64,000 nt of DNA from an uncultured Candidatus Saccharibacteria bacterium (GTDB taxonomy: Bacteria; Patescibacteriota; Minisyncoccia; UBA6257; 1-14-0-10-44-23), in the NCBI GenBank assembly GCA_964641225.1, contig CAZXKC010000004.1, positions 29,026 to 93,025 of the forward strand. The letters are read 5' to 3'. Positions 21,113 to 39,946 of the stretch are shown in pieces (position 1 is the stretch's first letter; every line of letters starts with the position of its first letter). The notes under the pieces were generated by a model. The model was given only the letters and a program-made list of their open reading frames with translations. It had not been told where the DNA came from and searched no databases. Both the position numbers and the translations under genes were made by a program.

Positions 21113-21197
21113 GGAGGGGTGGCAGAGTGGTCTAATGCACCGCACTTGAAATGCGGCGTGCCGCAAGGCACCGTGAGTTCGAATCTCACCTCCTCCG
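21113..21197 (+). tRNA. tRNA-Ser (anticodon TGA), class II
   Basis: Acceptor GGAGGGG/CTCCTCC, anticodon loop CTTGAAA, long variable arm, T-loop GTTCGAATC. Confidence 0.75.
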
Positions 21198-22790
21198 CAA
21201 GTTGAGATTCTTGTCATACCGAGCCTCCAAAGACCCCGTTCCGACGCGGGTTCTTGGAGGTTCGAATGAAGACTTGGTCTCTGGAACAGCAGCCGTGTAT
21301 TTTCTGATAAGAAACGCCGTGTTGCCGTTATCCCACTTCACTTTTTTGTCTAAGAGGCGGAGGTTCGAATCCTGCCCGAGGGCAGCGACAAATTCCCGTC
21401 GTTTTTCTGGCGTAGCCTTATCCCAGCGTTTAGCGACCTCAGTAGCGAAGACAAATCCTTCTTCGGCTTTATTAACCCAGTTCACCACCTCTGCGTTAAC
21501 CTCGTTAGCAACTTGATTAAGCCTAGCCTGGTCTTTAAGAAGCTCCTTTTTACGCTCCGCAAACTGCTTAGCATCAATCTCCTCATCAGCACGCATATCA
21601 ATGAGACGTTTGAGCCTCTGAGCACAGGCATCGTCGGCCCTACGCTGGGCGGTCAAGATTGCTTCCCGCTCACGGAATTGGTTCTCGTTTTCCTTTCTTA
21701 GTTTTGCCAAAGCCCAATCCCGGAAACGCGGAGAGATATCCATACCCTCAACAACCTCCTCGATCTGTTTTTCTAGAGCCTTCTCTTCCACGAGAGGCTG
21801 CGCACAGCGAGGTTTCAGCTGTTTAGTACAGTGATAATAGATATAGGTATGGACATTGCCGTTTTTCTGTCGTTTTATACGTTCCTCGGCAGTTATAGCT
21901 GCGCCACACGCCCCGCACCGAAGTATGCCGACATATTTAAACCAGCGTCGTTCCTGGGGCCGAGGCATACCTTTGCGGCCCAACAATTTTTGGACGCGAT
22001 CAAACTCTTCGAGGGTAACCATTGGCTTGTGATTTCCTTTATATAGCTTCCTGTTTTCTTCATTTCCATATTCAAACCACCCGTAGTAGAAGGGATTGTT
22101 AAAGAGATGGTAAATAGCTGCCCGAGAGATTGGATTACCACCACCGTTTCTTCGTAGAGGTGTTCGTAGGCCCCAATCCTTCGTAGCGATGTCGAGTACC
22201 TGCGGAGCGGTATAAGCACCAGTCAGCATGAGGTCCCATGCCTTGCGAACTAACGGGAAGATTTCCTCATCAACGAGAATCGTATTTGAACCCTTATCGC
22301 GCAGCCTGCTATTTTTATAGCCGATCGGAGCTGGCCCAGGACGCCAACCCATTCCGACCTTAGTATTCTGTCCGCGTTTTACGTTGGTGCTGAGGTCATC
22401 TACATATTTCTTGGCAATACCGAAGTCCAAGCTCATCATGAACTTGTCATCACCGTTGTTTCGGAAAACTTTCTCAGGTGTACGGATTTCCGTAATGAGG
22501 CCGCGATCCATAAACCAAGAAATTTTTCCACCATCCAACGCATTGCGTGCCAAACGGTCGAGCTTCCAAACTAGAAGTGCGCAACTTTTTTCTTTTTCGA
22601 GATAAGTGAGCATCTCTTCAAAGTGCGGGCGGCCCGGAGACTTGGCCGACTTGCTCTCCTTGAAGGTTGCACAAATCGTGAGCTTCTCGCGCCGCGCATA
22701 ACTCTTAAGTACCTCCTCTTGGGAATCTATCGAGAGAGCCTGCTTATCGTCTGATTCGGAACTTTTGCGGCAGTAGACAACGTACTTCAT
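21186..22790 (-). CDS. Large serine recombinase (integrase)
   Basis: N-terminal resolvase domain with catalytic Ser (YCRKSSESDD), a recombinase domain, a Cys4 zinc ribbon (CGACG...CTKQLKPRC) and a coiled-coil. The ORF 3' end overlaps the tRNA-Ser 3' end, so the true stop may lie earlier. Confidence 0.8.
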   Translation of the reverse strand: MKYVVYCRKSSESDDKQALSIDSQEEVLKSYARREKLTICATFKESKSAKSPGRPHFEEMLTYLEKEKSCALLVWKLDRLARNALDGGKISWFMDRGLITEIRTPEKVFRNNGDDKFMMSLDFGIAKKYVDDLSTNVKRGQNTKVGMGWRPGPAPIGYKNSRLRDKGSNTILVDEEIFPLVRKAWDLMLTGAYTAPQVLDIATKDWGLRTPLRRNGGGNPISRAAIYHLFNNPFYYGWFEYGNEENRKLYKGNHKPMVTLEEFDRVQKLLGRKGMPRPQERRWFKYVGILRCGACGAAITAEERIKRQKNGNVHTYIYYHCTKQLKPRCAQPLVEEKALEKQIEEVVEGMDISPRFRDWALAKLRKENENQFREREAILTAQRRADDACAQRLKRLIDMRADEEIDAKQFAERKKELLKDQARLNQVANEVNAEVVNWVNKAEEGFVFATEVAKRWDKATPEKRREFVAALGQDSNLRLLDKKVKWDNGNTAFLIRKYTAAVPETKSSFEPPRTRVGTGSLEARYDKNLNLRRR

Positions 22791-22972
22791 AGGGAATATT
22801 TTAATTTAACCATGCGAATTATATTTGAGACAATATCCGGTTTTCATATAGCTTCTGAGGGTCAGCGACCTACATCTTCTACATCACCCCAGACTCTCCG
22901 CGCAAACAAAGAAGCGCTGGGGTGTAGCCGCTCATAAACTAATCTACAACGTGCAGGCCTCTATATACACGC

Positions 22973-24409
22973 TCAGATTCCCAAGCTCCCGTCTACATTG
23001 CCAGGAGTGGCCGTCCTTTCTGGGTCAGGAGCTTCAGGTGTAGATGGTGTAGAGAAATAAGTGTCCCGGACAAGTTCTACCTTTGCCTTTTCGAAAAGAT
23101 ACCAATTTCCCTCCCCCTTTCGTTTCTTCTCGCTGTGCATGTTGTAATTTTTAATGCTCCACCCAACCCTGGCTGCTATCTGGTTTGAGCTCATTTTCCG
23201 ATCGAATAAATTTACGTCTAGAGCCTCAGCTATAAGTCTCGGTGAGAGCAATATCTGGGTTATGCCATCTTTGAACTGCTCAAGGATGTACGCCAAGACA
23301 GCATGGTCTAGCTCAGATGGCTCAGACTCAGCAAAGTCATACCGTGACAAGAAGCGCTTCCTTGCCTCTGGTATTTCTTCGGCTACGTTCATGGCACGGA
23401 ACATAACTTCAAAGGGCAACCATAATTCGAGTGTTCGTCCTGATATCTCTTTTTTTGCCCTATGCTCGACTTTGAGGATTGAGTAATCTATGGCTACCGA
23501 AGAGCCATGACCAATAAGGAACTTATAAAGTTTTCCCCTTAGGCCGCCCCAGATATCACTCTCCTCATCTGGGTCAAAAAAATTTTTGTGGCTCCGTAGT
23601 AGAGGAATAATCAGGCACCTATCGCGTAAGTCCTCTGGAAGGTCCTGTATCGAAGCGAATACCTTAGGCCCATAAGTGCTGTGTTCGACAATGCTCCTTT
23701 GCTTCTCTTTATCGAGCTGAATAATTCTTCGCTTACCGCCGCTACCCTTATAAGAATCAGCAAATATATCAAGCAGTTCTTCGCCACCCTTGCGCTTCAA
23801 CCCATCTGCTTGATCGACCAAGAACGTTCCTCTTAATGCATCCACCGTATCTCCAAGGGCCGCAACACTAGGCCGGCTCTTAACTGCGTTGAAGCAGAGT
23901 TGCTTCAGAAGATTCAGAAACTGGCTTTTGCCAGAGTGCTTCGGAGCCTTAACGTTTAAGAACGGATACGCCGAAAAGATAGGGTGGAAATATGTTCCCA
24001 CTATCCAAGCTGCTGCTAGTGAATAATCAACCTCCTTTTCTAGGCCGACATAGTCTTTAATCGTCTTTTTGATTTCCTCGAAAAGCTCCTTTGGCTCAGG
24101 GATGACATTTAAGCGGACGTCTGCGTATTCAGCTATGAACTGATTGAGGTCTTTGATGCTCCAGCGCTCCTGAAGCCAGATAAGCCGTCGACCCTTCTTC
24201 TCGATGAAGTATTCCTTGTCTTCGATAACCAAAGAATCTTCTGTAGCGAAGCGAATCGTTCCTTTCCATACTAGTAGAATTAAATCCTCAACCTTTCGTA
24301 ACTTTGAGTGGTAACGGAAACCTAGAACCAAAACACCGTCTTTTATATCAAGCGAAGGGTGGAGCGTTATTCCAGCGAATCCCTCAATGATATTTTTGTT
24401 TTCATCCAT
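22973..24409 (-). CDS. P-loop NTPase, replication-associated (D5/P4-primase-helicase or VirE-like; uncertain)
   Basis: Walker A APKHSGKS, Walker-B-like FLVDQAD, and a C-terminal winged-helix-like region. It sits next to the integrase, as in satellite or integrative-element replication modules. Confidence 0.4.
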   Translation of the reverse strand: MDENKNIIEGFAGITLHPSLDIKDGVLVLGFRYHSKLRKVEDLILLVWKGTIRFATEDSLVIEDKEYFIEKKGRRLIWLQERWSIKDLNQFIAEYADVRLNVIPEPKELFEEIKKTIKDYVGLEKEVDYSLAAAWIVGTYFHPIFSAYPFLNVKAPKHSGKSQFLNLLKQLCFNAVKSRPSVAALGDTVDALRGTFLVDQADGLKRKGGEELLDIFADSYKGSGGKRRIIQLDKEKQRSIVEHSTYGPKVFASIQDLPEDLRDRCLIIPLLRSHKNFFDPDEESDIWGGLRGKLYKFLIGHGSSVAIDYSILKVEHRAKKEISGRTLELWLPFEVMFRAMNVAEEIPEARKRFLSRYDFAESEPSELDHAVLAYILEQFKDGITQILLSPRLIAEALDVNLFDRKMSSNQIAARVGWSIKNYNMHSEKKRKGEGNWYLFEKAKVELVRDTYFSTPSTPEAPDPERTATPGNVDGSLGI

Positions 24410-24421
24410 AATGATGGTTAA

Positions 24422-24598
24422 TTAATTATTTTCATCAGCGCCAAGCCCGTCGACCTCGGGCATTGGATCGATAGCAAATTTTATGAGAGCAAGAAGCCTG
24501 CACGCTTCTTTGGCGGCGTGTTCATCAGTAAGCTCTACGCCTGTCTCGGCGAGATATAGCTGCTTAAAATTTTGGATTTCCTCTGTCGATAACTGCAT
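24422..24598 (-). CDS. Small ORF (58 aa) not in the ORF track, possibly an island regulator or excisionase-like protein
   Basis: Hand translation gives MQLSTEEIQNFKQLYLAETGVELTDEHAAKEACRLLALIKFAIDPMPEVDGLGADENN. It ends 13 nt before the start of the 478-aa gene. Confidence 0.2.
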   Translation of the reverse strand: MQLSTEEIQNFKQLYLAETGVELTDEHAAKEACRLLALIKFAIDPMPEVDGLGADENN

Positions 24599-24657
24599 TC
24601 ACTGACCTTATCGTTCAGACCTATATGCCTGACATCCGTTTCTTGTATGCCTGCAAA

Positions 24658-24682
24658 CTAAAAAAGCCGCTTATTCGCGGCA
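24658..24682 (-). terminator. Rho-independent terminator after the 237-aa minus-strand gene
   Basis: GCCGCGAATAAGCGGC hairpin followed by TTTTTT on the minus strand. Confidence 0.5.
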
Positions 24683-24728
24683 CATTTATTGAGGTTATTA
24701 ACAGGACAAGAGGCAGACTAAAAGAATC

Positions 24729-25442
24729 CTAGCTACTGAGTAGTATTTTGAATCCCGGATTAATCCCGTAGCCGCTGCCTCGTTTGCTCACAATTAATTT
24801 ATCCTTAACGCCTAGGTACTTTTTAAAATTCCTATTAATTTTTTGGATTTCTGCGCGTATCGTCTTTAGATTATCCTTGTTTAGAGCGGAAGCAATATCA
24901 CCCGTTAATTTAAATTCGGAGCCAACCTTAAGAAATTTAACAATTTTAAGGCGGTCAGATTTTTGACCCATTGGATAAGAATATTTATCCTTTGATTCAC
25001 GCCACAAATTGCCAAGCTTATCGATGGAAATAATTTCTCTCTTTTTCTTCAGGTTATTATTTTCTGCCTGCAGCAACTCAGATTGGTCGGAATACTTTTG
25101 ATAAAGCTTATCGAACTTTCCGTGGTTCACTACTATCAGGCAAACCCTACCACTTGCTGGCCGAGAAAAATCATTTGGTAGTCCTATGGTGACATAGTGT
25201 TCAGCAAGGTTCATCGAAAGATGTATTACACCCATTTCACTAAGCCAGAGAAGAATCCTCCGGCGCATTATGGGATGGGGCGCAGAAGGAAGATTGGTGC
25301 CGATGTCATCGAAAGGGGCGTTGTAGTCCGTCATTATGATGCCCTTATTTGGCTTAAAAGAGGCAGCAATTTTAATTGCCGTCATAACCCACGCGGTGGC
25401 CCCTTCCCGATAATGCTCGGCGTTAGTAGTGTCCATATACAC
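24729..25442 (-). CDS. Hypothetical island protein with a C-terminal winged-helix-like DNA-binding region (candidate replication initiator or primase-like)
   Basis: N-terminal region has an FDDIG acidic motif. C-terminal region KIVKFLKVGSEFKLTGDIASAL... has an HTH-like pattern. No confident family assignment. Confidence 0.3.
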   Translation of the reverse strand: MYMDTTNAEHYREGATAWVMTAIKIAASFKPNKGIIMTDYNAPFDDIGTNLPSAPHPIMRRRILLWLSEMGVIHLSMNLAEHYVTIGLPNDFSRPASGRVCLIVVNHGKFDKLYQKYSDQSELLQAENNNLKKKREIISIDKLGNLWRESKDKYSYPMGQKSDRLKIVKFLKVGSEFKLTGDIASALNKDNLKTIRAEIQKINRNFKKYLGVKDKLIVSKRGSGYGINPGFKILLSS

Positions 25443-25589
25443 TCTTTATGGACGAGTTGACAGGGTTATGTCAATAGACTCCATATCTTACTTCCAAGCT
25501 AACTCAAGAGGTGATAAAATGTGCTTACAATTTAATACGCCGCAAGGCAGAGCCTAAACCGCCAAGAAATTGACGGCATGGCTCCGAAG

Positions 25590-25700
25590 TCCAATAACGA
25601 CCATTAAGCTCCTAGTCAGAGCGTCGTTATTGGCTATCCAGGGAAACTTGGGTAGGTCCCGTAAGGGATCGCTGGCTGGGAGCTTTGTGTTTCTCAGCCC
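25590..25700 (+). ncRNA. Structured 5' leader RNA, copy 1 (candidate riboswitch or cis-regulator), upstream of the 25719 operon
   Basis: Four helices, each with compensatory changes relative to copy 2. Hairpin 1 has an invariant 21-nt loop CAUUAAGCUCCUAGUCAGAGC. Hairpin 2 has loop GGAAAC. Hairpin 3 has a GNRA tetraloop. Hairpin 4 has loop GAGCUUUGUG, complementary to the loop-1 sequence AAGCUCC (predicted pseudoknot). Confidence 0.45.
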
Positions 25701-25718
25701 AAATAAAATTAATAAACT

Positions 25719-26156
25719 ATGCCCAAGACTGAACCAGAAAATCAGGGCGATGGGGAAATTCAATGGGTTGAGGCTGGTCTGATAAAGCCAGAGGGAGAAA
25801 TTAAGCATCCTGTATTACCAGTTGATCTGGTTACAAGGATAGAACGATTCGTAAAAGTATTTGGCGAAACATATCCGCTCTCGCTTGAAAGGACAATTTA
25901 TAATTTCAAACGGGAAGCTCATCCCGGCAGCGAAGTGGAAAGATGGGAAGCGATGGCGGAGGTTTATAGAGATTACCTTGTGAAAACTGAAGGTCTCTCT
26001 GCTGACCAGAAAAAGGAACTACTTTCGATATTGCTTTTTAGTGCAAGCGCGGCCAACAGACCGGGTGGATTTAGGTATTTCGATAAGCCAGCAATTCTGA
26101 GAATCACGAAAGAGCTGGAGAGGGCCTATGCAGTAATCCAATCAAGTAGAACTTAA
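25719..26156 (+). CDS. Hypothetical protein (145 aa), first gene after leader copy 1
   Basis: ATG follows the leader element. No recognisable domain. Confidence 0.4.
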   Translation: MPKTEPENQGDGEIQWVEAGLIKPEGEIKHPVLPVDLVTRIERFVKVFGETYPLSLERTIYNFKREAHPGSEVERWEAMAEVYRDYLVKTEGLSADQKKELLSILLFSASAANRPGGFRYFDKPAILRITKELERAYAVIQSSRT

Positions 26157-26170
26157 AAACTAATCACTAT

Positions 26171-26362
26171 ATGAACATCTTACTGATAGCGATAGTAGTA
26201 CTCCTGATAGTTATAGCCACGGCAGCAGTTATTAGTGCACTTAGCCAATCGAGCTTCGAACTAAAAGAAGTCTGGGTTATATTTTTGTGGGTAGTCGTTG
26301 GGGCGGCCGCAGTGACTGGAATAACTTACTGGGCGCTGAACTTTTTTAATATAATTCATTAA
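26171..26362 (+). CDS. Small two-TM membrane protein (63 aa)
   Basis: Two hydrophobic helices, tightly spaced in an operon. Confidence 0.35.
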   Translation: MNILLIAIVVLLIVIATAAVISALSQSSFELKEVWVIFLWVVVGAAAVTGITYWALNFFNIIH

Positions 26363-26366
26363 TATC

Positions 26367-26615
26367 ATGAAAAGAATTATCTACGCGATTGTATGCGCCA
26401 CCATTATCATTTCCTCGTACTGGCTATGGCACGCGGATAGATTGCAGGTTGAAAATGCAGAATGGTGCCTTACGCAAGAGGTATATCAATACGAAGTTTG
26501 TGGAGCTAAGGCTGAGCGTGACATTCAGCGAACGGTTTATCTGAAGGTGCTGATGTTTTCGTTCCTGGTCTTCGGCTCAACCAGTTTAGTTCTTAAGGCC
26601 AGGAAAATTTCTTAG
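26367..26615 (+). CDS. Small membrane protein (82 aa)
   Basis: N- and C-terminal hydrophobic helices, tightly spaced in an operon. Confidence 0.35.
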   Translation: MKRIIYAIVCATIIISSYWLWHADRLQVENAEWCLTQEVYQYEVCGAKAERDIQRTVYLKVLMFSFLVFGSTSLVLKARKIS

Positions 26616-26624
26616 AGGCCCGTC

Positions 26625-27656
26625 TTGGTATTTCCCTTGCCTCCGGAGCCGCTTTCGCTATTGGAAGGCCATAGCAGTAGCCTCAGTTATATCGAGATAC
26701 AAGAGAAGGGCAGGAAAAGCCCGGAACCCTTTATTTACGGGGCTAAACATAGTAGTCTCAAGCTAAGATATATGGTGATACCGGGCACAAAGGGCGTAGA
26801 TACCACAGGAGTCACGGCGGGCAACACCGGGAACGAATTGTTTTATTTTTGCATATCCGACACAGAGGATTCAGGCTACCTAGAGCGATTTATCGAACAA
26901 TTAGACGCCCACATACCGTCATTTGTTTTTTCAAAGGACACCCTTGCGAATTATGAGAGGCTTTTAGCAGAGGGAAAAACTTCAAAATCCCCACTGGAGC
27001 ATGCGCGACACCTTCTGCAAAAGACCAGGGCGGGCGGAACGGCCGGATCAGGAGAGCTAGGAGAACTACTGATGTTTCTTTTCGCTAAAAACGTAAAAGG
27101 TGCGAACAAGCTGGTTTCCAAAATTCAGAGCCGGACTAGCACTACGACAACCCAACAGGGGCGCGACGGCAGCTTTATATTGCAGGATGAGCGAGGGGAA
27201 ATTTATATGCTTCTAGGAGAGGCTAAGATGCACCAAGACTCCAATGACGGCTTGAGAGAGGCGCAAACAGATATGAATGCATTTTGGGGCGATCAGGAAC
27301 GTTTGAGCCACGAGATTCGCCTGGCTTCCAGCCACCTCCGCGATGAATTAACTCCCCAGAACACCGCGGCTTATGAAGCCTATTTCATCGACGATAATCC
27401 TAGGCATCAAGAATTGAAATATAAGAGTGTTGTTTTTGTGGGATTCAACTTTCCAGCGTTTTCTGCGCTGATTCAGAAAACAGCAGATTTCAACGCATTC
27501 AGTCAGGAAGTATTAGCCGACCTAAACCGATGTTTCAATAATCAGGCCGCACACATTACTGCTTCTCCGCACCCCAACATTTATTGCTTCGTACCCTTCG
27601 AATCAGTGGAAAGCGCACGGACAGCATTCGCTAGTCGCCACTCATTAACCCACTAA
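26625..27656 (+). CDS. HamA-like (DUF1837-like) putative PD-(D/E)xK effector of a Hachiman-like system
   Basis: Immediately precedes a large SF2 DEAH helicase, with stop and start adjacent. Possible D...(E)xK motif in FILQDERGEIYMLLGEAKM. The true start may be the internal Met (MVIPGTKG). Confidence 0.4.
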   Translation: MVFPLPPEPLSLLEGHSSSLSYIEIQEKGRKSPEPFIYGAKHSSLKLRYMVIPGTKGVDTTGVTAGNTGNELFYFCISDTEDSGYLERFIEQLDAHIPSFVFSKDTLANYERLLAEGKTSKSPLEHARHLLQKTRAGGTAGSGELGELLMFLFAKNVKGANKLVSKIQSRTSTTTTQQGRDGSFILQDERGEIYMLLGEAKMHQDSNDGLREAQTDMNAFWGDQERLSHEIRLASSHLRDELTPQNTAAYEAYFIDDNPRHQELKYKSVVFVGFNFPAFSALIQKTADFNAFSQEVLADLNRCFNNQAAHITASPHPNIYCFVPFESVESARTAFASRHSLTH

Positions 27657-27657
27657 T

Positions 27658-30333
27658 ATGCCAGACCCGGTCATAAACTTATCCAATAAGATTCGGGAAA
27701 GCGGGAAATTCAATGAACGTTTTCTTGCGCTGCAAAAATATGCCGCTAAAAAGCGACTCACCTTTAGCGCTGAGGATGCAACCCCTGAACAACTGCAAAA
27801 ATTGATACTCCAAGCTTCGGTGCTTGCATTGAGCGATGACATTGAGCACAAACGTACAGCTCAAAAAATCATGGCCTTGTTCCACGAGATAAAGCCGGAC
27901 AATCATTTACTAAGCTACGCGATACAAATTTTAGCATCACGACTTGGAAATTTTCCTGTCGTAAGTAATGCATCCACAGTCTTTGGTGAATCCAAAATAT
28001 TTAAAGATGCTTCTGATGAGGCTTCGTTGGATACAGAGTATCTTTTTGACCCTGAAATAATCGCCAACTTATACTCTGAAGAGGCTCAGTCACGATTACA
28101 GATACAAGATAAGGTTTACCATTTTAATATTTTCCAGAAAGAAATACTTGATGCCCTGTCAGAGAAGGCGTTGGTGAGCTTTTCTGCTCCCACATCATTT
28201 GGAAAATCATTCATCGTTCGGCAGCACATAGCGCATCTATATGCTGGTCAGAAAGTTAAACGGGTCCTAGTACTTGTTCCTACCAAGTCCCTGATCGATG
28301 ATTTCTTTGCGGATTTTGTAAAAATAAAACGAGAGCTGAATCTTGATTTTGGCATTTTTACTCACGCCCGTTCCGTAGATGCGGTTCCGGAGAAGGCGGT
28401 ATTTATTCTGACGCAAGAACGGATATCATTCCTCATCACCAAGAATCCTGAATTTGTTAAGTCTTTTGACTTGATTTACTGCGACGAAGCCCACTACATC
28501 TCCAGAGGATATCGCGGATTTGTTTTGCGAAGTGCTCTGAAAAAACTTATCGAGCTGTGCGGAGTGGGCATCGAGGAGGGCAAGGCTCGATATATTTTCA
28601 GCTCCCCATTGATTAAAAATCCTGAGTACTACAAGGGGAAGCTATTTCCCTTACTTTCCTCAGAGCAATCGTTTCATAAAGAAATTCTCTATTCACCGGT
28701 CGAAAAGAATATCCATTTTATTGCCAAAGAAGAGCGGCAATTTAAGTATTATCTTTTGAAGGATTCTTTTGGTGAAGATTCATTCGATGATCGGCTGGAA
28801 GAGCTCGGTTCCAGAAATTTTCCCCAAGGATTAATGACCGAGGATACGAGAGCACAAAAAATCGACCGAGAGATTCGAATGGTTCTGGACTGCAGTGGGA
28901 CAAGCCCTTCAATCTTGTATACCACCAGCCCAATTTTCGCCCACAGATACGCCTTAGCATTGGCCGAGGCTCGACCGGAACGCAACCGAATATCTAGTCA
29001 AGAAATCGAGGATTTGAGCAGATACATTAAAGACCATTACGATGACAACTTTGGCCTAGTGAATATCTTAAAGAAGGGCATCGGCTTGCACTATGGGCCG
29101 ATGCCGACTGGGCTTCGGAGAGCAATGGTTGACCTCTTCGAGCGAGGCCTGATTGATTACATGGTTTGCACCCCAACTCTTCTTGAGGGGGTCAATCTCC
29201 CAGCAAAAAATATCTTTTTATTCTCTGATAGGTATGGAGGGCACGGTGGCAAAGAAAAACACTCGGCGCTATCTTTCTGGAACTTAGTTGGTCGAGCCGG
29301 CAGAATCACTTATGGTCTTTCTGGAAATGTATTCTGCATTGAAGATGAGCCTCAAAAATACGAAGACCTCTTCGAAAATACTGAAACCGAGATAACTGAC
29401 CCGGAGGCGAACGTCATGGAGAATGACACTCGGAGGAGTTACATTGTAAAAACTTTTCTTTCTGAAACTGATAGGTTTGACTATTTTCGGTCACATAGTC
29501 GAGGTGATATAGAATACCTAATATTTGAACTTTTGACCCGTGAAAATCCCGAACGAATCTTGGACAATTTCAATCTTAACCCCGAAGAAAAAGCTAGGAT
29601 GCTTGCTGCTATTCAGCAGCAGAGAGCGGAACTGAGCATATCGTTAGAGCTGGTCAACAAGAACCCTGGCATCGACCCGCGCTTGCAGGATAGATTGTTA
29701 GCCAATCTGCGATCGCTCCCAGAAGAAGAGCTTCGTGGTTACTTGGAAATTCCAGGTAATACTTTGGCAGTTACCGGTTCGCAGCTAGCAGATATCCTTG
29801 GGTACGTAAAACGGGATTTGGCCTGGCCAAAAAGGGATGAAAGCAGAACTGCGAACCGAATTATCCAGTGGCTACACGAACATCCTATTTCTTTTTTTAT
29901 TAACCAAGTTTTGCAATATATCGAACCGGGCAGCGAATTCGACACCCACTTGGGGAAGATTGAAAAAGCTATCGAAATTCTTCGGGAGGTTGACCGAGAG
30001 TTATCCTACAACGCTCCCAAATATCTTAAATGCTTCTACGATTTACTCATTCAAATCGCCGCTGAACAAGGGATTGCCGATATAAATATCTATGAGGAAA
30101 AAATTGAATCATTCCTATTTTCGCTCGAGTCAGGCGTCTCTTCTGTAATAGCAAAATTTCTCCTCGAGAAGGGTGTTTCAAGGCCAGTTGCCATACGAGT
30201 AAGCAGTTTAGTTGATGATATAGCTTCAATCCCAATCTCAAATGATTTTTTCGAGAAACCCGAAGTCCTCGAGAGATTGAGTCGCCTCTCAAAACTCGCC
30301 CTAGATGAGCTTAAGGAGCGACTCGGTGTTTAG
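27658..30333 (+). CDS. SF2 DExH-box helicase (Ski2/Hel308-like core), HamB-like
   Basis: Motif I SAPTSFGKSF, motif II LIYCDEAHYI, helicase C-terminal motifs GIGLHYGPMP...MVCTPTLLEGVNLPA, and a long C-terminal extension. Confidence 0.6.
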   Translation: MPDPVINLSNKIRESGKFNERFLALQKYAAKKRLTFSAEDATPEQLQKLILQASVLALSDDIEHKRTAQKIMALFHEIKPDNHLLSYAIQILASRLGNFPVVSNASTVFGESKIFKDASDEASLDTEYLFDPEIIANLYSEEAQSRLQIQDKVYHFNIFQKEILDALSEKALVSFSAPTSFGKSFIVRQHIAHLYAGQKVKRVLVLVPTKSLIDDFFADFVKIKRELNLDFGIFTHARSVDAVPEKAVFILTQERISFLITKNPEFVKSFDLIYCDEAHYISRGYRGFVLRSALKKLIELCGVGIEEGKARYIFSSPLIKNPEYYKGKLFPLLSSEQSFHKEILYSPVEKNIHFIAKEERQFKYYLLKDSFGEDSFDDRLEELGSRNFPQGLMTEDTRAQKIDREIRMVLDCSGTSPSILYTTSPIFAHRYALALAEARPERNRISSQEIEDLSRYIKDHYDDNFGLVNILKKGIGLHYGPMPTGLRRAMVDLFERGLIDYMVCTPTLLEGVNLPAKNIFLFSDRYGGHGGKEKHSALSFWNLVGRAGRITYGLSGNVFCIEDEPQKYEDLFENTETEITDPEANVMENDTRRSYIVKTFLSETDRFDYFRSHSRGDIEYLIFELLTRENPERILDNFNLNPEEKARMLAAIQQQRAELSISLELVNKNPGIDPRLQDRLLANLRSLPEEELRGYLEIPGNTLAVTGSQLADILGYVKRDLAWPKRDESRTANRIIQWLHEHPISFFINQVLQYIEPGSEFDTHLGKIEKAIEILREVDRELSYNAPKYLKCFYDLLIQIAAEQGIADINIYEEKIESFLFSLESGVSSVIAKFLLEKGVSRPVAIRVSSLVDDIASIPISNDFFEKPEVLERLSRLSKLALDELKERLGV

Positions 30334-30808
30334 AATTACCTTCCTCGTCGTTACGATGAACATTAAATTGCATGAGGATTGGGCGAGGTTCAACTTGCCC
30401 GTCACCGCTCAAAGCCTCTTTGGTACTGAAATGTTTTCGGTCTAGTCGCTCAAGTACGAACTTAGAAAGATCGGCCTTGATTGCCATAATCTTGGTGTTC
30501 CGGCGCATGATGGGCTGGCCGGTGGCCTTATTCTTCATCGGTCCGAAGGCTGTCATTACCGGCTCGCTTTCATCGAGGGTAAGCATATCTTCTAGATTAC
30601 GCTCGGCTTTTTCAATCATCGCCTGATGCATGGTGACGGCTTCCGAAAGTACTTTTGGCGATTGATGAGTTATCTGCTTAGCGTAGGCGACGCTGTACCC
30701 GGCCTTCACAGCCGACTGATAGGCGTTTGCAAAGGTGGAGCTTTTTGGATCCACGTAGTAGGCCTGAAAAGCCAACTGTCTCATATCTCTTTGTTTGATG
30801 CCCGGCAT
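30311..30808 (-). CDS. Phage terminase small subunit-like protein (Terminase_2-like N-terminal HTH)
   Basis: N-terminal pattern RQLAFQAYYVDPKSSTFANAYQSAVKAGYSVAYAKQITHQSPKV matches the TerS consensus (QeaF..Yl...N...A...AGYS...A). No terminase large subunit or capsid genes are nearby. Confidence 0.45.
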   Translation of the reverse strand: MPGIKQRDMRQLAFQAYYVDPKSSTFANAYQSAVKAGYSVAYAKQITHQSPKVLSEAVTMHQAMIEKAERNLEDMLTLDESEPVMTAFGPMKNKATGQPIMRRNTKIMAIKADLSKFVLERLDRKHFSTKEALSGDGQVEPRPILMQFNVHRNDEEGNSKHRVAP

Positions 30809-30990
30809 GAAAAAATTTTATCATCCGCTATTCCAGGGGGACAAGTGTATCGATGTGGTTGACAAGATAGAGGGGCTATGTTATCTTGTTTTTGATATGA
30901 AATCCGTGACCGCACAATTTAGTTACTATTACGCCGCATATATAACCACCCGGGTGCGGTAACTTTGTCTTAAATAATATTGTCTCTACC

Positions 30991-31016
30991 AACCGCCCCC
31001 GAGCGGTTTTTTTGTT
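30991..31016 (+). terminator. Terminator-like hairpin (AACCGC-ccccga-GCGGTT followed by TTTTTTTG)
   Basis: Seen in the sequence. No plus-strand gene lies immediately upstream, so its function is uncertain. Confidence 0.2.
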
Positions 31017-31121
31017 TTCGCGATCTCGGGGGTATAGAGCAGCGTGTTTCTGAACGATCGTTCGTTCAGGCGCTGTAGAGGCCCCGGAGCCTCAAGAGTT
31101 CTTTGAAAGGAGAATAGCGTC

Positions 31122-31391
31122 ATGGCCACGATTCGCATTACTCAGGTTCTGGCTGGCGGGAAGATACTCGACCACGACTTCGCTGTGCCGGAGTCAGATC
31201 CGGTCGGTTTCGGCTGCTCCTGCGGGTTCATGCATCCCACATGCTGCGCCCGCGGCTGTGGGTGCATGCCGCAGATCCACCGCTACGTCAAGAAACTGCC
31301 TCACTCGTTGGAGTGGGGCGACCTGGTGGAGCGTCGTGGGAAGGTCGTGGCTGTGCCCGACAAGAAATCTGACGGTGGAGAGACGTACTAG
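31122..31391 (+). CDS. Small Cys-rich protein (high-GC cassette)
   Basis: Multiple CxxC/CC motifs (GCSCGFMHPTCCARGCGCMPQ). GC about 62%. Confidence 0.3.
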   Translation: MATIRITQVLAGGKILDHDFAVPESDPVGFGCSCGFMHPTCCARGCGCMPQIHRYVKKLPHSLEWGDLVERRGKVVAVPDKKSDGGETY

Positions 31392-31393
31392 CT

Positions 31394-31969
31394 GTGCGCG
31401 ACATCCTCGGCATCATCGCCGCAATCCTGACGCTCGCTGGGTTCATCCCGGCGGGCGTCGGAGCAGTACGCGGACCAGTTCGCCCAAGCAGGGCGACATG
31501 GCTCATCTGGGCGGCGGAGGCGGTACTCATCTACCAGACCTTCGCCGCCGCAACTCCGGACTCAAGCGCACTCTGGATTCCGCTGGGATTCACCGTAGGA
31601 GCGGCAGGGATGTTTCTCCTTTCGGTTTCATTCGGGGAGGCCGGGTGGAGTGCCCTCGACAAGTGGTGCCTGGCAGGAGCGGGTGGCACGATCATCGTCT
31701 GGCAACTCGTTGGACCTATCGCGGGGCTACTAGCTGGTATCGCTACCGACATGATCGGAGCGGTGCCGACGGTGGTCAAGACATGGAGAGATCCAAGTAG
31801 CGAAAGTCGTGCACAGTGGTTGCTTTGGTGGCTCGGTGCCATCTTCAACCTCTGCGCGATCAAAGACTGGCAATCCGTGGAGGCGGCGTACCCGCTCTAT
31901 GGAATTGTTCTGACAACTACAGTAGCCGGCATTATGGCCGGTAGAAAGAGGAAGTATGCCCAAGGCTAA
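31394..31969 (+). CDS. Polytopic membrane protein (high-GC cassette), paralogous to the native gene at 61801-62355
   Basis: GTG start. Shares ATWLIW...W...P...E...W(L/M) motifs and TM topology with the 61801 protein, although the two genes differ in GC by about 17 percentage points. Confidence 0.45.
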   Translation: MRDILGIIAAILTLAGFIPAGVGAVRGPVRPSRATWLIWAAEAVLIYQTFAAATPDSSALWIPLGFTVGAAGMFLLSVSFGEAGWSALDKWCLAGAGGTIIVWQLVGPIAGLLAGIATDMIGAVPTVVKTWRDPSSESRAQWLLWWLGAIFNLCAIKDWQSVEAAYPLYGIVLTTTVAGIMAGRKRKYAQG

Positions 31970-32519
31970 GGAAAAGGGATGGGTTCGTGCCCGCGACGAG
32001 AAGTACTACGTTGGCCAAGAGATCGACTTCACGGCCAACTACGACGACCACGCTCCCGAGGCGGTATTGAAGGCCATGTTCCACAACTACATGCCCGACA
32101 GGGCAGACGCCAAGTACGTGGACCTCAACCAGAAGGGCAAAAAGCCTCTCAGGGGCTACTGGTACTTCAAGGTCAAACTGCTCAACCCGTCTCGCGGTTT
32201 CTCGTACGAGGAGTCCGTAGAGTGGGCTCAGAGCTCGTACGTCGGGGGCAAGGGCGTAGTTCCCGGACATCTGGCGGTCGCCTTCGCCGAACAGTTCCCG
32301 CTCCTCGTCATGCTCGGCGACGTGAAGCTCACGGGAGGAATCTGGCGGCACGAGAACAGACTCACCTGCATCGAGCTCACCCAAGGCATCAACGGCAGCC
32401 AAGACATCCTCGCGTTCCGCTATCAGGACGGAGGAATGGTCTCGGATCACGACATCTGTCCGGTGATCATCGAGCAGGAGCAGATCGTGGTCCCGACTCG
32501 GAGAGGCCACGGCTACTAG
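31956..32519 (+). CDS. Hypothetical soluble protein (high-GC cassette)
   Basis: Protein-like composition. The overlapping minus-strand and Arg-rich alternative ORFs look like high-GC shadows. Confidence 0.35.
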   Translation: MPKAKEKGWVRARDEKYYVGQEIDFTANYDDHAPEAVLKAMFHNYMPDRADAKYVDLNQKGKKPLRGYWYFKVKLLNPSRGFSYEESVEWAQSSYVGGKGVVPGHLAVAFAEQFPLLVMLGDVKLTGGIWRHENRLTCIELTQGINGSQDILAFRYQDGGMVSDHDICPVIIEQEQIVVPTRRGHGY

Positions 32520-32575
32520 CCCACAGCACGCGCGGCGGCATCGACCCACAAGGTTGATGACCGCCGCGCTTCATT

Positions 32576-32980
32576 TTATACTTTGACGGTCTCGCGGTTC
32601 TGGAGTAAGGTTCGAACATCGTCTAACAGCTGCCGCACAGTAAGACTATCGGTATGTGTCAGCAGTAGATTGAAGGGAGAACGTAGCGTAAAATCTAGCT
32701 TCTTGCCATTCAGGACGCAGTTCTGAAGTAAGAAGCCCAAAAACTGGCGCTTTTCTTCAACTTCGGCACTATCAAATATCTCTTTTGCCCTCTTAGCGAT
32801 GTTAAGGGTCATATTTGCTGTGAGATAGAACTGCTCGTCGGCTTCCGAATGATCTTTCATTTGATCCAACACTTCGGCTTGCTTCTCTTTGTACTCTCTC
32901 AAGAAAGTGTCATACATTTCATCCGTAATCCGCCTTGATCTGCGGTAAATCCTAGCGTTTTTTATTTTGACCGACTCCAA
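32576..32980 (-). pseudogene. C-terminal fragment of a second large serine recombinase (remnant)
   Basis: Region TFLREYKEKQAEVLDQ...KRQFLGFLLQNCVLNGKKLDFTL resembles the conserved C-terminal coiled-coil region of large serine recombinases. No catalytic domain is present. Confidence 0.35.
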
Positions 32981-33071
32981 TAAAAGCTATACTATAAGCA
33001 TATCGTTTTTATAACAATTTAATGCAGTGAAGCCTAACCCGCGCGGGCAACCACGTGGTATGGCATCAAAT

Positions 33072-33185
33072 CCGGTAAAGGTCATTAAGCTCCTAGTCAG
33101 AGCTACCTTTACCGGTCATATCTGGAAACGGATATGGGTGGGCGCAAGCCCATCGCTGGCTAGGAGCTTTGTGATTTCTAGCCTG
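33072..33185 (+). ncRNA. Structured 5' leader RNA, copy 2, upstream of the 33201 operon
   Basis: Same four-helix architecture and conserved loops as copy 1, with different stem sequences (see copy 1). Confidence 0.45.
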
Positions 33186-33200
33186 TCTGAAATTAAAATT

Positions 33201-33878
33201 ATGGACAAGCAAAAAGAGAATGCCGCAATTAAGTTCTTTCGTAAGCATCCGATCCTTTCCTCAAATATAATCGGCATCATCCTCGGCATAGCGATAGCGT
33301 GGTGGCTCTGGCTTATTGCCTGCGTTCTCGGCTTTGTATTTTATTTCCACTACCAGAAAACACTGAAGCATGAAGTTGCCACAAATAAAGCGGCTAGCAA
33401 TGATGCCGTGAAAACCAAAAAGTGCCGTGCCTGCAAAATGGATATCGCGGCAGGGGCAACAAAATGTCCGCATTGCAGAACCGCTCAACCAAATAGCGTG
33501 GCGGCTGTATTTGGGCTATTTGGAATAATAGTTGCCGTTGTTGCCATCGTCGTTATTAGTAGTAATTCCGATACTTCCACGCCAACAAAGCAGAGCAAAT
33601 TAAATGATCCCACTATTGATTGGCAAAGTATCTGTTCAGCTTTTGACAATTTGAAAACGGCAAATATCGTCAAAAAAGTTGAGGGACGAAGTGTTTACGT
33701 TGCTCCTTTTTGGTGGAATGTGGCAAACATTGAAGATAAAAAAAATATTGGCTTTGGCTCTGCCTATTGCATCGCCCGCGACTTAAACTCAACGACTGTC
33801 TGGTCAGATATTTATGACTGGCAATCTGGCAAGAAATTAGCCCATTACAGTGAAGCGTGGGGCTTTTCAGTTGAGTAG
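33201..33878 (+). CDS. Membrane protein with a cytoplasmic CxxC...CxxC zinc ribbon
   Basis: The true start is the ATG at 33201 (MDKQKEN). The ORF-track start at 33027 would translate the leader RNA. Two TM helices flank CRACKMD...CPHCRT. Confidence 0.45.
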   Translation: MDKQKENAAIKFFRKHPILSSNIIGIILGIAIAWWLWLIACVLGFVFYFHYQKTLKHEVATNKAASNDAVKTKKCRACKMDIAAGATKCPHCRTAQPNSVAAVFGLFGIIVAVVAIVVISSNSDTSTPTKQSKLNDPTIDWQSICSAFDNLKTANIVKKVEGRSVYVAPFWWNVANIEDKKNIGFGSAYCIARDLNSTTVWSDIYDWQSGKKLAHYSEAWGFSVE

Positions 33879-33916
33879 TTTTCGCCGGCGAACACAATCG
33901 CTAAAATGGCGATTTC

Positions 33917-36900
33917 TTGATATGCTCAAAGGAAGACTTTGATAGAAAAGTTATGGATGGATTAGACCTCAATAAGTTTATTAAGTATTGTCTCGGCTAT
34001 ATTCAACTTACACGGCAGAGGGCTTTTGCGGTACAGCAAAAATCAGCAGTTGAGTTCCCAAAAAAGTACTTTGAACTTTCCGGCTTACTAAACGGCGAGG
34101 AGGACGATGCGCTAGGCGAGACAATTGCATTGCCGCTTTTTTATGATCTTGATCCTAAAGAAGTGAAGAAGGAGCAGAGGGATGAGTATGAAAAGCAAAA
34201 AATGTTTGCCGCAAAGATTGAAGATATCTATAACAAATATCGCAACGATCCTTTCACAAAACAAATAGCATTCAGTTTCGGTTATTTTGAAATTGAAATC
34301 CCAATTGAGCTTGAAGGCGAAGAGCTTGAATCAATTGAGAATGGAGAATCAGAGCCGCCGCCAAAGCAGGTAAAAATTGATCGCTACCCGCTCTTTAGTC
34401 TGATCGTGAAGATTGAAAAAGAAGAGAAGGGCAAGTATGTAGTCTACGCCGTGGATCAAGACATTCAGGTTAATCTTGGCGTACTTGAGCCAGTACTAGG
34501 CGAGAATCTTTATTACCAGTTATTAGATGACGTCGGCAAGAAAGAAATGGATGGGCTTTTTTCTTTGCCGCTCAAAAACATAGAAATCTTTACAGAGGTT
34601 TGGCACAAAATAAAGACAGTATTAAAACACACAAAGGCAAACTTTGATGAGGATTCTTTTAAGTTAGAAGAGATGCGCATTGCTATCGCACCTCGCGCTA
34701 ATTATTTTTTGGCAGAAGATTTACAGAAGCTCGCTAAGGTAGATCAGGATGCAATGAAGGATACATCGCTTTGCAGTTGGACGAGCAATGAAGGCATTAG
34801 CGGTACAAGTGAGATTCCTGAAGAGAAGGACCTATATTTTCCCTTCCTTTACGATAAATATAAGTTAAAAGTTCTATCGGTAATAAACAATAAAGGTGCG
34901 ATTGTTCAAGGACCGCCGGGCACTGGAAAATCGGAAACAATTGCTAACCTACTCTGTCATTTAGCCGCTCACGGCAAGCGCGTTTTATTTGTTAGCCAAA
35001 AAGCTCAAGCACTCAAAGTTGTAAAAGATAAGTTACGCAAACTAGATGTTAAATACCTCTTTGGTTATATCCCAAATCCAAGCTCGGCACAGCTTGGCGA
35101 AGATGACGAGGCTGATAGTATATCGCCGCAACTCGCCGGCCTTGGAGCGCATATTGATTCAATGGGTTATAAGTTTTATCCCCGAAAAGCAGGGATTGCC
35201 CAGCACGGCGACGGTGTCAGCGGGAACGTATCGCTAGCGCATCCTACGGCTTTAAAAGCAAAGCTAAAAAATGACTTCAACCAAACTATTGAGGTGCAAC
35301 GCAAGGCGTGGAAATTGGATCAAGAGTTTAAGGCTCTAGCCCTTTTTGATTTGCCGGTCGGAAATCCTAGCGCATTCACTAGTAATTTTAGCGAAAGTAA
35401 CCGCAAAGAAGTTAATCATCTGAAAGACGTAATCTCAAGCGCAATCAAGACGACGCAGAAATATGACGAAAGCGAATCTAAAAATGGTTTTGATGGTCTG
35501 TTCGGAAAAATAAATCTTCGGGAAAAGAGTTTCGCTACTGCTACTTATAAAATCAAAGAAGACATCGCCCGTTCGGGATTTGACGGACACGCACAGATGC
35601 TACGAGGCATAAATAATTTTATGCGTAATATGCGGCTGGGAGGCGTTCGTTCGGAATTGCCCCGCGAGGTTAGAGATTACATTGACCAAGAGTTAAAAAA
35701 GGACATCTCGCGCAATGATGCTTGTAAGCTCTTTGAAGACCTACACGTTTATTTTTGCCACCACGAAAATCTTATCAATCTTGAACAGGCAAAAAAGAAG
35801 CTATCGGCTACTTTAGAAGCTATAGGTTTGTCCGATAAAGAGTTTGGAGCAATAGAAGAGGTCATTGGAAAAACTGGTGAAAATGTTACGGACGTTAAGG
35901 AAAAAGTTTTGAGAACGAGGGTACTTCGGAAAGAACTACACGAGCTTGGCAAGCTGGGCGTTAATCCAAACGACGTAACTGAAAACATCAAAGATGCCGA
36001 AACGGAACGCAGGGATCGCGTGGCTTTATATCTCCAGAACATCGTCAATAGAAACATCCTAGAAAAGCTCGCGCAAGGACCAACGATTCGGCAGATTGTA
36101 GCTCGCTTGGCAAAAGCATTCGGCAAATCAAAGCGTGCGTTTAGGACATTTGATAAACTTCGCAAAGATCCTGATAACTTCAATGCCATTATGGACTTGA
36201 TTCCAGTCTGGATTATGGAGCTAGATGATGCCAGCCGCATCATTCCGCTTGAAGCCGGCGTGTTTGATTACGTCATTCTGGACGAGGCTTCACAGTGCAA
36301 TGTAGCATATACCCTCCCTGTTATGTTCCGTGCCAAGCAAGCCCTATTCGTGGGCGATAGCGAGCAGATGCGCGACAGTACGGTAATGTTTAAGTCCAAC
36401 CGATCCTTTGACGAATTGGCGCGTCGTTATGGTGTTCCCGAAGAAATGCAGATCAAGGCTAGCCAAGCAACTGTTCAGTCGGTTCTAGACATAGCTACTC
36501 TCCGAGGATTCCTGCCAGTACCGCTACGTTACCATTACCGCTCGCCGAACGAGCTAATTGGCTTCAGTAACCAGTATTTCTATAAACCCAAGTCAAAGGA
36601 CCTTATAGCCCTCAATAACACTTATTTGACCTACAAGGACACTAATCGTGTGATGCTTGTCCACGAAGTGAAGTCAGATTGGTCAGATGAGATTTCTGAC
36701 AACGCTAACGTTGCTGAAGCAAGTGAGATTCTAAAGCTTTTTAAGGAGCTACGTGATGATGCCAAATATGCTAGAAAATCAGTGGGCATTTTAACATTCT
36801 TCAACGCGCAAGCCGCTTTATTGCGTAAAACTTTTGAAGATGCCGGTTTTAAAGAAGATGAAGATAATTTCAAAATCAGCATCATTGAGGGCATTCAAGG

Positions 36901-37516
36901 CGACGAAAAGGATATCGTTATTTACTCCTTTGTTATCCGTAGTCCAGAACAAAAGAAACGCTACTTGCCGCTGACCGGTGAAGGAGGCGATATACGCGGC
37001 GATATCAATCGCGGCAGAGTAAACGTTACCTTCTCGCGCGCCAAATTGCAGGTCCATTGTTTTATCAGTATGCCAATAACGGCATTACCCGAAGGCATTT
37101 GGATCAAAAAATATCTTGAGTACGTGCAAAAGCACGGCGAGGTAGATTTCTACGCAACAGAGCTTCGCCCCTTTGATTCATATTTTGAAGAAGAGTTTTA
37201 CGCACTTTTGAAAGCAGGTTTGAAGAAAGATTATCAAATCCGGAATCAAGTTGAGAGCTGTGGTTTTAAGCTGGATTTTGCCGTCACCAACACACGGACG
37301 GGCAAACAGATCGCTATTGAGTGTGATGGTCCAACTCATTTTGAAGACGAACTTGATGAAGAGTACGGTATTTATGTTGAGGATGACGAAGAGCGTCAGC
37401 GCGTTTTAGAGTCAGCCGGCTGGACCTTCTATCGCGTCAAATACCTTGACTGGCTCAATGAATCGTTTGATCGTAAAGCGGTAATAAAAAACCTTATTAA
37501 GTTAATGGATGATTAA
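33917..37516 (+). CDS. Upf1/Dna2-like SF1B helicase fused to a C-terminal DUF559/Vsr-like restriction-endonuclease-fold domain (Nhi-like architecture)
   Basis: Motif I IVQGPPGTGKSE, motif II YVILDEASQC, motif III GDSEQM, motif V/VI IEGIQGDEKDIVIYSF and NVTFSRAK. C-terminal IAIECDGPTHF...GWTFYRVKYLDW resembles the DUF559 core. Confidence 0.65.
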   Translation: MICSKEDFDRKVMDGLDLNKFIKYCLGYIQLTRQRAFAVQQKSAVEFPKKYFELSGLLNGEEDDALGETIALPLFYDLDPKEVKKEQRDEYEKQKMFAAKIEDIYNKYRNDPFTKQIAFSFGYFEIEIPIELEGEELESIENGESEPPPKQVKIDRYPLFSLIVKIEKEEKGKYVVYAVDQDIQVNLGVLEPVLGENLYYQLLDDVGKKEMDGLFSLPLKNIEIFTEVWHKIKTVLKHTKANFDEDSFKLEEMRIAIAPRANYFLAEDLQKLAKVDQDAMKDTSLCSWTSNEGISGTSEIPEEKDLYFPFLYDKYKLKVLSVINNKGAIVQGPPGTGKSETIANLLCHLAAHGKRVLFVSQKAQALKVVKDKLRKLDVKYLFGYIPNPSSAQLGEDDEADSISPQLAGLGAHIDSMGYKFYPRKAGIAQHGDGVSGNVSLAHPTALKAKLKNDFNQTIEVQRKAWKLDQEFKALALFDLPVGNPSAFTSNFSESNRKEVNHLKDVISSAIKTTQKYDESESKNGFDGLFGKINLREKSFATATYKIKEDIARSGFDGHAQMLRGINNFMRNMRLGGVRSELPREVRDYIDQELKKDISRNDACKLFEDLHVYFCHHENLINLEQAKKKLSATLEAIGLSDKEFGAIEEVIGKTGENVTDVKEKVLRTRVLRKELHELGKLGVNPNDVTENIKDAETERRDRVALYLQNIVNRNILEKLAQGPTIRQIVARLAKAFGKSKRAFRTFDKLRKDPDNFNAIMDLIPVWIMELDDASRIIPLEAGVFDYVILDEASQCNVAYTLPVMFRAKQALFVGDSEQMRDSTVMFKSNRSFDELARRYGVPEEMQIKASQATVQSVLDIATLRGFLPVPLRYHYRSPNELIGFSNQYFYKPKSKDLIALNNTYLTYKDTNRVMLVHEVKSDWSDEISDNANVAEASEILKLFKELRDDAKYARKSVGILTFFNAQAALLRKTFEDAGFKEDEDNFKISIIEGIQGDEKDIVIYSFVIRSPEQKKRYLPLTGEGGDIRGDINRGRVNVTFSRAKLQVHCFISMPITALPEGIWIKKYLEYVQKHGEVDFYATELRPFDSYFEEEFYALLKAGLKKDYQIRNQVESCGFKLDFAVTNTRTGKQIAIECDGPTHFEDELDEEYGIYVEDDEERQRVLESAGWTFYRVKYLDWLNESFDRKAVIKNLIKLMDD

Positions 37517-37521
37517 ACTTC

Positions 37522-38172: not shown

Positions 38173-38178
38173 AACTTT

Positions 38179-39229: not shown

Positions 39230-39326
39230 TTTGTCTTAGTTGCAAAATACCGCTAAACTCAATTTCTTGTTTAATATGACCCCAATCAACAGTTCTGAAC
39301 GCATCTAACCACTCCCGCCAGAAACA

Positions 39327-39352
39327 ACACCCGCTGCATAGCGGGTGTTTTA
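39327..39352 (+). terminator. Rho-independent terminator after the kinase-like gene
   Basis: ACACCCGCT-gcat-AGCGGGTGT followed by TTTT. Confidence 0.5.
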
Positions 39353-39360
39353 ATTCTTAA

Positions 39361-39816: not shown

Positions 39817-39946
39817 AACATAATAAATAGTTTGTATGTATCTAGCCTACTCTAGCACTTATCGTTTGTCAATATATTTTTATTGTTAATAAACCTAGTT
39901 CAACACCCGTCCACACCATATGTAATGCTAAACTATTAAGAGGTGT

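Follow-up and report, generated by a model that had tools for sequence, protein, structure and literature searches.

The stretch analysed here, hereafter the window, comprises 64,000 nucleotides (nt) of contig CAZXKC010000004.1 (GenBank assembly GCA_964641225.1) from an uncultured Candidatus Saccharibacteria bacterium of the Patescibacteriota. At positions 26772-30333, two genes follow each other directly on the same strand, with one base between the stop codon of hamA and the ATG of hamB, and this pair is very probably a canonical two-gene Hachiman anti-phage system, as predicted from sequence and from a structural model. Three small open reading frames (ORFs) and a copy of the LOOT RNA precede the genes in the same orientation, and all of them are located on a genomic island (Table 1).

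Profile searches place the upstream protein in the Pfam family HamA/DUF1837 (PF08878; E-value 1.8e-27, 97.1 bits, cut-off 25 bits), the match covering residues 88-291 of a 343-amino acid (aa) ORF which holds hamA, and 20 HamA models of PADLOC match the protein as well, the best of them at 1.3e-30. The original prediction had assumed this fit to DUF1837, which is herewith substantiated. It had further described two adjoining ORFs, of which the coordinates, the order and the 891 aa of the helicase stand, whereas the length of 343 aa has to be corrected to 294 aa for HamA, counted from the ATG at 26772. This start was chosen because the identical NCBI protein, encoded on the same 97,843-bp contig, comprises 294 aa and because 17 HamA homologues (46-57% identity), all of about 293 aa, begin with an N-terminus MxIPGT that aligns to M50 of the 343-aa ORF. 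The TTG start at 26625 was rejected accordingly; it results when an ORF is opened mechanically at whichever start codon comes first behind a stop codon.

In the following, HamA residues are numbered according to the 294-aa protein and conservation refers to an alignment of 18 sequences. No variation occurs at G94, E98, D132, E150 and K152, and E95 is conserved in at least 90% of the sequences, the nuclease residue set G94/E95/E98, D132 and E150-A-K152 being complete in the window HamA. A candidate nuclease triad had been proposed earlier within FILQDERGEIYMLLGEAKM; the string is present and its E-A-K part holds, whereas the Asp of FILQDERGE (D139) varies among the homologues and was dismissed as the catalytic Asp in favour of the invariant D132 of GRDG just upstream. 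Judging from motif spacing rather than from structural superposition, the window residues would correspond to G89, D90, E93, D127, E147 and K149 of HamA from S. thermophilus, and E150/K152 probably to E138/K140 of ECOR31 HamA (PMC12278908). In S. thermophilus, alanine mutants of D90, E93, D127, E147 and K149 lose immunity, whereas the G89 mutant keeps it (PMC13064477).

HamA (294 aa) was modelled with AlphaFold2 on the basis of the same 18-sequence alignment, and the model reached a predicted local distance difference test (pLDDT) score of 89.6 and a predicted template modelling (pTM) score of 0.90. In a Foldseek search against the PDB, only three chains were retrieved with E <0.001, namely 8vx9_A (1.4e-5), 8zue_A (4.4e-5) and 8vxy_A (6.6e-5), each with probability 1.0. 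All of these are solved HamA or AbpA chains and the next match followed only at E 0.08, so that the structural comparison to HamAB suggested in the original prediction came out in its favour. At the sequence level, HamA matched no PDB sequence in phmmer, and the HamA family profile reached only 9wh1_A among the PDB chains (7.5e-6), which features SAAF at the position of GEAK. A profile search of genome contigs with the HamA alignment yielded two loci only, neither of them from the source genome.

The helicase matches the PADLOC HamB1 model PDLC00186 at 6e-119 over residues 9-853 of 891, and a second HamB1 model at 1.6e-115 over residues 7-887. Among the best 25 of 31 PADLOC families, all are HamB except models of PDC-M23B, the best non-Ham family (2.3e-29). 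DrmA of DISARM and DruE of Druantia, which had been named beforehand as competing assignments, were rejected, as no such model occurs among these best 25 of 31 families and the neighbours are without PADLOC matches; HamB explains the helicase best. Pfam assigns the domains DEAD, ResIII and Helicase_C, helicase motifs I-VI are intact, and the strings GKSF, CDEAHY, GIGLHYGPMP and TPTLLEGVNLPA, previously read from the sequence, are all present. An assignment as Hel308 equivalog was rejected, since the NCBIfam matches are partial (about residues 420-577, RecA2 core) and reach 78.7 bits versus a curated cut-off of 891. The nearest solved chain is 9wh1_B, the HamB of trypsin-HamAB (3e-53, residues 141-805), followed by 8zue_B (2.4e-24) and then by Ski2, Hel308, Mtr4 and Brr2 chains together with 8vx9_B. 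With predicted active site and helicase motifs retained, hamAB is apparently intact.

Table 1. Features of the hamAB locus and its surroundings; positions refer to the window unless residues are given. R1 denotes a covariance model of LOOT with a 30-nt 3' extension.
Feature	Position	Strand	Remarks
hamA	26772-27656	+	294-aa DUF1837 / PD-(D/E)xK-like nuclease (predicted)
Mechanically called ORF holding hamA	26625-27656	+	TTG start, 343 aa
In-frame 5' extension of this ORF, outside HamA	26625-26771	+	missing from the identical NCBI protein and all homologues
HamA motif SGELGE (G94, E95, E98)	27048-27065	+	
HamA motif GRDG (D132)	27159-27170	+	
HamA motif GEAK (E150-A-K152)	27216-27227	+	
hamB	27658-30333	+	ATG, 891-aa Ski2/Hel308-like superfamily 2 (SF2) helicase
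HamB Q-like motif	residues 156-162		
HamB motif I	residues 177-185		GKSF in APTSFGKSF; K183
HamB motif Ia	residues 206-212		
HamB motif II	residues 275-280		CDEAHY; DEAH 276-279
HamB motif III	residues 314-317		
HamB GIGLHYGPMP	residues 474-483		
HamB motif V	residues 505-516		TPTLLEGVNLPA
HamB motif VI	residues 542-549		GRAGR
Genomic island	21199-39946		about 18.7 kb, both LOOT units inside; synteny with L131, absent there
tRNA-Ser(TGA), left island border	21113-21198	+	ARAGORN, Rfam; 95% identical to the tRNA-Ser of L131
Large serine recombinase, 534 aa	21186-22790	-	Pfam Resolvase, Recombinase, Zn_ribbon_recom; 3' end shares 13 nt with tRNA-Ser
LOOT RNA copy 1	25545-25700	+	Rfam RF03000 25551-25670, 83.5 bits; R1 137.2 bits, full length
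Small ORF between LOOT copy 1 and hamA	25719-26156	+	145 aa
Small ORF between LOOT copy 1 and hamA	26171-26362	+	63 aa, hydrophobic
Small ORF between LOOT copy 1 and hamA	26367-26615	+	82 aa, hydrophobic
Serine recombinase C-terminal remnant, 134 aa	32576-32980	-	directly upstream of LOOT copy 2; no Pfam match
LOOT RNA copy 2	33025-33184	+	Rfam RF03000 33031-33154, 89.4 bits; R1 165.8 bits
Membrane / zinc-ribbon protein, 225 aa	33201-33878	+	cargo of LOOT unit 2
Superfamily 1 (SF1) helicase, 1199 aa	33917-37516	+	C-terminal MTES_1575/DUF559-type endonuclease; Pfam AAA_11, AAA_12, MTES_1575
lysE homologue, right flank	39947-40512		counterpart in L131

The arrangement of the two genes is conserved beyond the window. 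In all five independent related loci examined (L002, L003, L004/5, L006/7 and L008/9), hamA (293-296 aa) stands immediately before hamB (886-899 aa), which together with the Pfam and PADLOC matches bears out the proposed two-gene Hachiman layout. Two of these loci, L003 (LCCS01000013.1) and L002 (JBAZWZ010000009.1), derive from metagenome-assembled genomes (MAGs) of Parcubacteria/Paceibacterota and encode the same HamAB subfamily, with HamA 48-49% and HamB 52-54% identical, the same adjacency and lengths as in the window (293-296 and 891-899 aa). For a relative that is 48% identical to the window HamA (P0017), NCBI uses the name 'Hachiman antiphage defense system protein HamA'. As in the window, a LOOT RNA and a serine recombinase precede hamAB in L003, whereas the intervening genes from LOOT to hamA are unrelated there, and L002 is without LOOT in the 20 kb covered. 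Among the neighbours of related hamAB genes are type I restriction-modification (RM) genes in L004 as well as PLD-SNF2, MmeI-like, SIR2 and TIR genes in L008; such neighbourhoods are typical of defence islands.

Among the characterized systems, HamAB of ECOR31 (PDB 8VX9, 8VXA, 8VXC, 8VXY; PMC12278908) likewise consists of two genes, a DUF1837 nuclease with E-x-K and a Ski2-like helicase, and its HamA (8vx9_A) is the top structural match of the window HamA model. Nevertheless, ECOR31 HamB comprises 1174 aa, compared to 891 aa here; the OB fold is limited to III-A HamB such as that of ECOR31 (PMC13064477). The type III-B Hachiman of S. thermophilus, Pez-Ham (PMC13064477), shares the HamA motifs G-[DE]-x-x-E, D and E-x-K in matching spacing, but no PezAT or AbiJ genes adjoin the pair in the window. 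The nearest solved relative of the window HamB belongs to trypsin-HamAB-MBL (PDB 9WH1, 9WHK, 9WHU), in which HamB is a 3'-overhang-specific, ATP-dependent helicase, while HamA has a trypsin domain at its N-terminus and is devoid of nuclease catalytic residues, the effector being a separate MBL nuclease activated by the trypsin domain (bioRxiv 10.1101/2025.09.03.673762). In contrast, the window HamA comprises the HamA domain only, with an intact D/E-x-K and no trypsin domain. AbpAB of E. coli (PDB 8ZUE) also combines a HamA-like domain with a Ski2-like helicase, and 8zue_A is the second structural match; still, AbpA has 531 aa with an extra N-terminal Cap4-like nuclease and a catalytically inactive HamA-like site (PMC11914072, PMC10732053). 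A fusion of the AbpA type is excluded by size, as the window HamA stands alone from the M at 26772 and has an intact site. Likewise, no match to Trypsin, Lactamase_B (MBL), PezAT or AbiJ was found among the island ORFs scanned with Pfam and PADLOC, which speaks against the trypsin-HamAB-MBL variant. Thus, lacking trypsin, MBL, Cap4-like or PezAT additions, the pair represents the plain two-gene form.

Some observations weigh against this assignment. The PADLOC subtype is ambiguous, since the top model for HamA bears the label HamA2 and that for HamB the label HamB1. The nearest HamB structure (9wh1_B) stems from a variant with an effector other than HamA, and mechanistic details may therefore differ, while the HamB of ECOR31 (8vx9_B) is matched over the RecA2 core only (2e-13). 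Finally, the structural matches of HamA feature a TM-score of about 0.5 and an identity of 8-13% (12% to ECOR31 HamA); the kinship to the E. coli proteins is therefore real but remote. The Hachiman call is correct but not new, adding one more divergent HamAB to a well-characterized family.

By homology to the ECOR31 system (PMC12278908), HamA and HamB would form a heterodimer which surveys intact double-stranded DNA and in which HamB restrains the nuclease. Free 3' ends, 3' single-stranded DNA ends or damaged DNA arising in phage infection would engage the HamB helicase, whose ATP-dependent activity would in turn license HamA for indiscriminate DNA degradation. Phage replication would thus be stopped at the cost of the cell, i.e., by abortive infection (Tuck et al., 2024, PMC12278908). 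In the ECOR31 model, HamA is released (PMC12278908), whereas HamA of S. thermophilus is active only inside the complex, where it is stimulated by ATP binding (PMC13064477). Either model would fit the sequence.

The window is chromosomal, encoding topA, glyA and 12 tRNAs, and the nearest named relatives of its TopA, with about 60% identity, belong to Candidatus Harrisonbacteria and 'Patescibacteria group' MAGs. A related Patescibacteria genome, L131 (GCA_964549935.1), features a TopA with 89% identity and is syntenic on both sides of the island. As tRNA-Ser and lysE are only 520 nt apart in L131, compared to 18,748 nt in the window (21198 to 39947), the bounds of the island could be set at about 21199-39946. 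Together with the LOOT match, this synteny upholds the claim of the original prediction that the pair occupies the cargo position of an island downstream of a structured leader RNA. No att-like direct repeats of the tRNA-Ser region of at least 12 nt were found at the far end of the island, which is uninformative, as such repeats are not expected from a serine recombinase.

Convergent with hamB and covering its last 23 nt, a 165-aa ORF (30311-30808, minus strand) showed faint matches to small subunits of terminases, namely to Terminase_2 (Pfam, 0.009) and to PHROG 51 (0.009). This terminase-like ORF hints at a possible phage or satellite origin of the element. Outside the island, an 825-aa protein in the chromosomal flank (46819-49296, plus strand) gave a weak match to the TraD/VirD4-type coupling-protein model TIGR03743 (9.1e-13), far under the cut-off.

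Three other explanations of the pair have to be considered. In an extended five-gene Hachiman, the three small ORFs between LOOT copy 1 and hamA would be partners of HamAB, e.g., as a membrane-associated sensor or effector. All five genes are indeed co-oriented behind a single leader RNA, no convincing plus-strand terminator precedes the end of hamB, and extended Hachiman systems are known, i.e., Pez-Ham, AbiJ-Ham and trypsin-HamAB-MBL. Nevertheless, this arrangement is quite improbable, as the small ORFs are without Pfam, PADLOC or PHROG match, BLASTP found no homologue of them beside hamAB in L002-L009 or in other LOOT loci, unrelated genes precede hamA in the relatives, and a spacer of 156 nt (26616-26624 plus 26625-26771) separates the 82-aa ORF from hamA. 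It is highly improbable that the pair is the non-functional remnant of a decayed Hachiman system and a passive passenger of an eroding island: although decay is visible elsewhere on the island, in the truncated recombinase at 32576-32980 and in a GC-rich stretch at 31-32.6 kb with overlapping ORFs lacking family matches, both hamAB ORFs are full length compared to their homologues, contain neither frameshift nor internal stop, and retain all catalytic and motif residues. A housekeeping Hel308-like helicase-nuclease pair for DNA repair instead of defence is barely credible, for even though the RecA2 core of HamB is common to Hel308, Ski2 and Pol-theta helicases, and NCBIfam Hel308 models (2.1e-17 to 2.8e-22) as well as the corresponding PDB chains are matched, the Hel308 matches are partial and far under their curated cut-offs, the HamB-specific profile spans the whole protein, and the pair is sporadic (only 18 close HamA relatives in 5.8 billion protein clusters), with relatives located in defence islands and the window copy on a horizontally acquired island missing from a close relative. 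The plain two-gene Hachiman system is accordingly preferred.

LOOT copy 1 heads, as the apparent 5' leader, the plus-strand gene run which ends in hamB, hamAB being its last cargo. Both copies in the window exceed the RF03000 gathering threshold of 46.4 bits and span positions 1-121 of the 121-nt model. For a wider sample, metagenome contigs were searched by a pattern scan and subsequently with R1, which yielded 80 LOOT copies, nearly all of full length, from loci of groundwater sites. LOOT behaves as a 5' leader in that a same-strand ORF starts at most 80 nt from the end of the LOOT model in 66 of the 69 further loci with downstream DNA (median 24 nt). The 85 large same-strand proteins encoded downstream include 10 N6/N4 DNA methyltransferases, 6 ResIII and 4 SWI2_SNF2 proteins, besides parts of type I RM systems, Ltp lipoproteins, SNase and trypsin-like proteins in a highly variable set which is rich in RM and defence genes; these counts are raw tallies rather than a measure of enrichment. 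Apart from the window, hamAB lies downstream of LOOT in L003 (LOOT 8144-8311) and L004 (LOOT 3800-3960), while no LOOT was found in L002, L006 and L008 within the DNA covered. It is absent from all 76 further LOOT loci, and Hachiman is therefore one cargo among many. Homologues of the window recombinase occur upstream of LOOT in about 30 of the 52 loci with at least 1 kb of upstream DNA, mostly in divergent orientation and 30-5800 nt away, which suggests that LOOT is part of a Patescibacteria family of mobile elements with serine recombinases. L004 is exceptional in that a tyrosine integrase, a Terminase_6N protein and a ParB-methylase are located upstream of its LOOT.

Moreover, a conserved long-range helix was found, in which the loop of LOOT hairpin 2 pairs with a segment shortly beyond the 3' end of the 121-nt Rfam model. 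In copy 1, 25609-25622 pairs with 25673-25686, corresponding to columns 97-111 and 232-245 of alignment A6. Its 14 pairs are 98.8% paired, a value which is inflated because the sequences had been aligned to fit this helix. In six pairs, both partners change; at one position, CG occurs in 34 and GC in 30 sequences, and CG/AU exchanges were found too. The CG/GC exchange is not an alignment artefact, since the position is flanked by invariant, ungapped columns. As the own stem of hairpin 2 covaries as well as the long-range helix, LOOT can be described as a pseudoknot of about 160 nt. The helix is followed by a U-rich tract (TTTGTGTTTT).

A sigma-70 scan revealed no more sites than in shuffled controls, with none directly upstream of LOOT copy 1 or hamA and none in 26625-26771. 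LOOT starts with GCCTAA, and 3-10 nt ahead of it a recurrent ACAAyTkAATA was observed in AT-rich DNA (e.g., 25532-25545 and 33012-33024), which the sigma-70 consensus scan missed and which may be a -10-like promoter element. In the literature searched, a passing mention of LOOT was found, but nothing about its function. It is tentatively proposed, with doubts somewhat outweighing confidence, that LOOT could be a conserved pseudoknotted 5' leader rather than a free-standing small RNA, preceding variable cargo operons in large-serine-recombinase elements of Patescibacteria and controlling cargo expression in cis. Such control might be exerted, e.g., by regulated read-through or processive antitermination, and the cargo would often serve defence, including Hachiman, Hhe-like helicase-nucleases and RM systems of types I-III.

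In BLASTP searches, the 134-aa remnant upstream of LOOT copy 2 aligns to residues of about 390-500 of the recombinases in L089, L017 and L020 and is 59% identical to an ORF of L061, while nothing was found at 1e-3 against the window's own recombinase. Because of this remnant, LOOT unit 2 has the appearance of a second element that was inserted in tandem and has decayed. The 1199-aa helicase-endonuclease behind LOOT copy 2 matches PDC-S37 (1.5e-72) and Hhe (8.5e-37) in PADLOC and is likely a second defence gene on the same island. Between the two units, a stretch at 30900-32600 features a GC content of 0.52-0.56, compared to about 0.44 in the rest of the island, and ORFs overlapping in several frames without family matches; the stretch may have been acquired separately.

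The Hachiman pair as such is of minor importance, given that the family is well characterized and that a relative with 48% identity had already been named HamA by NCBI. Still, a predicted helicase-nuclease system for abortive infection is documented here in a small-genome lineage of the Patescibacteria, on an island whose boundaries can be drawn. As HamB has its nearest solved relative in the trypsin/MBL variant and HamA nevertheless keeps its nuclease site, the pair could help to trace the swap of the effector. The more useful lead is that LOOT, an orphan Rfam motif, is linked to elements with serine recombinases and to their defence-rich cargo; if the proposed role of the leader were true, Hachiman would here be under the control of a structured-RNA switch.

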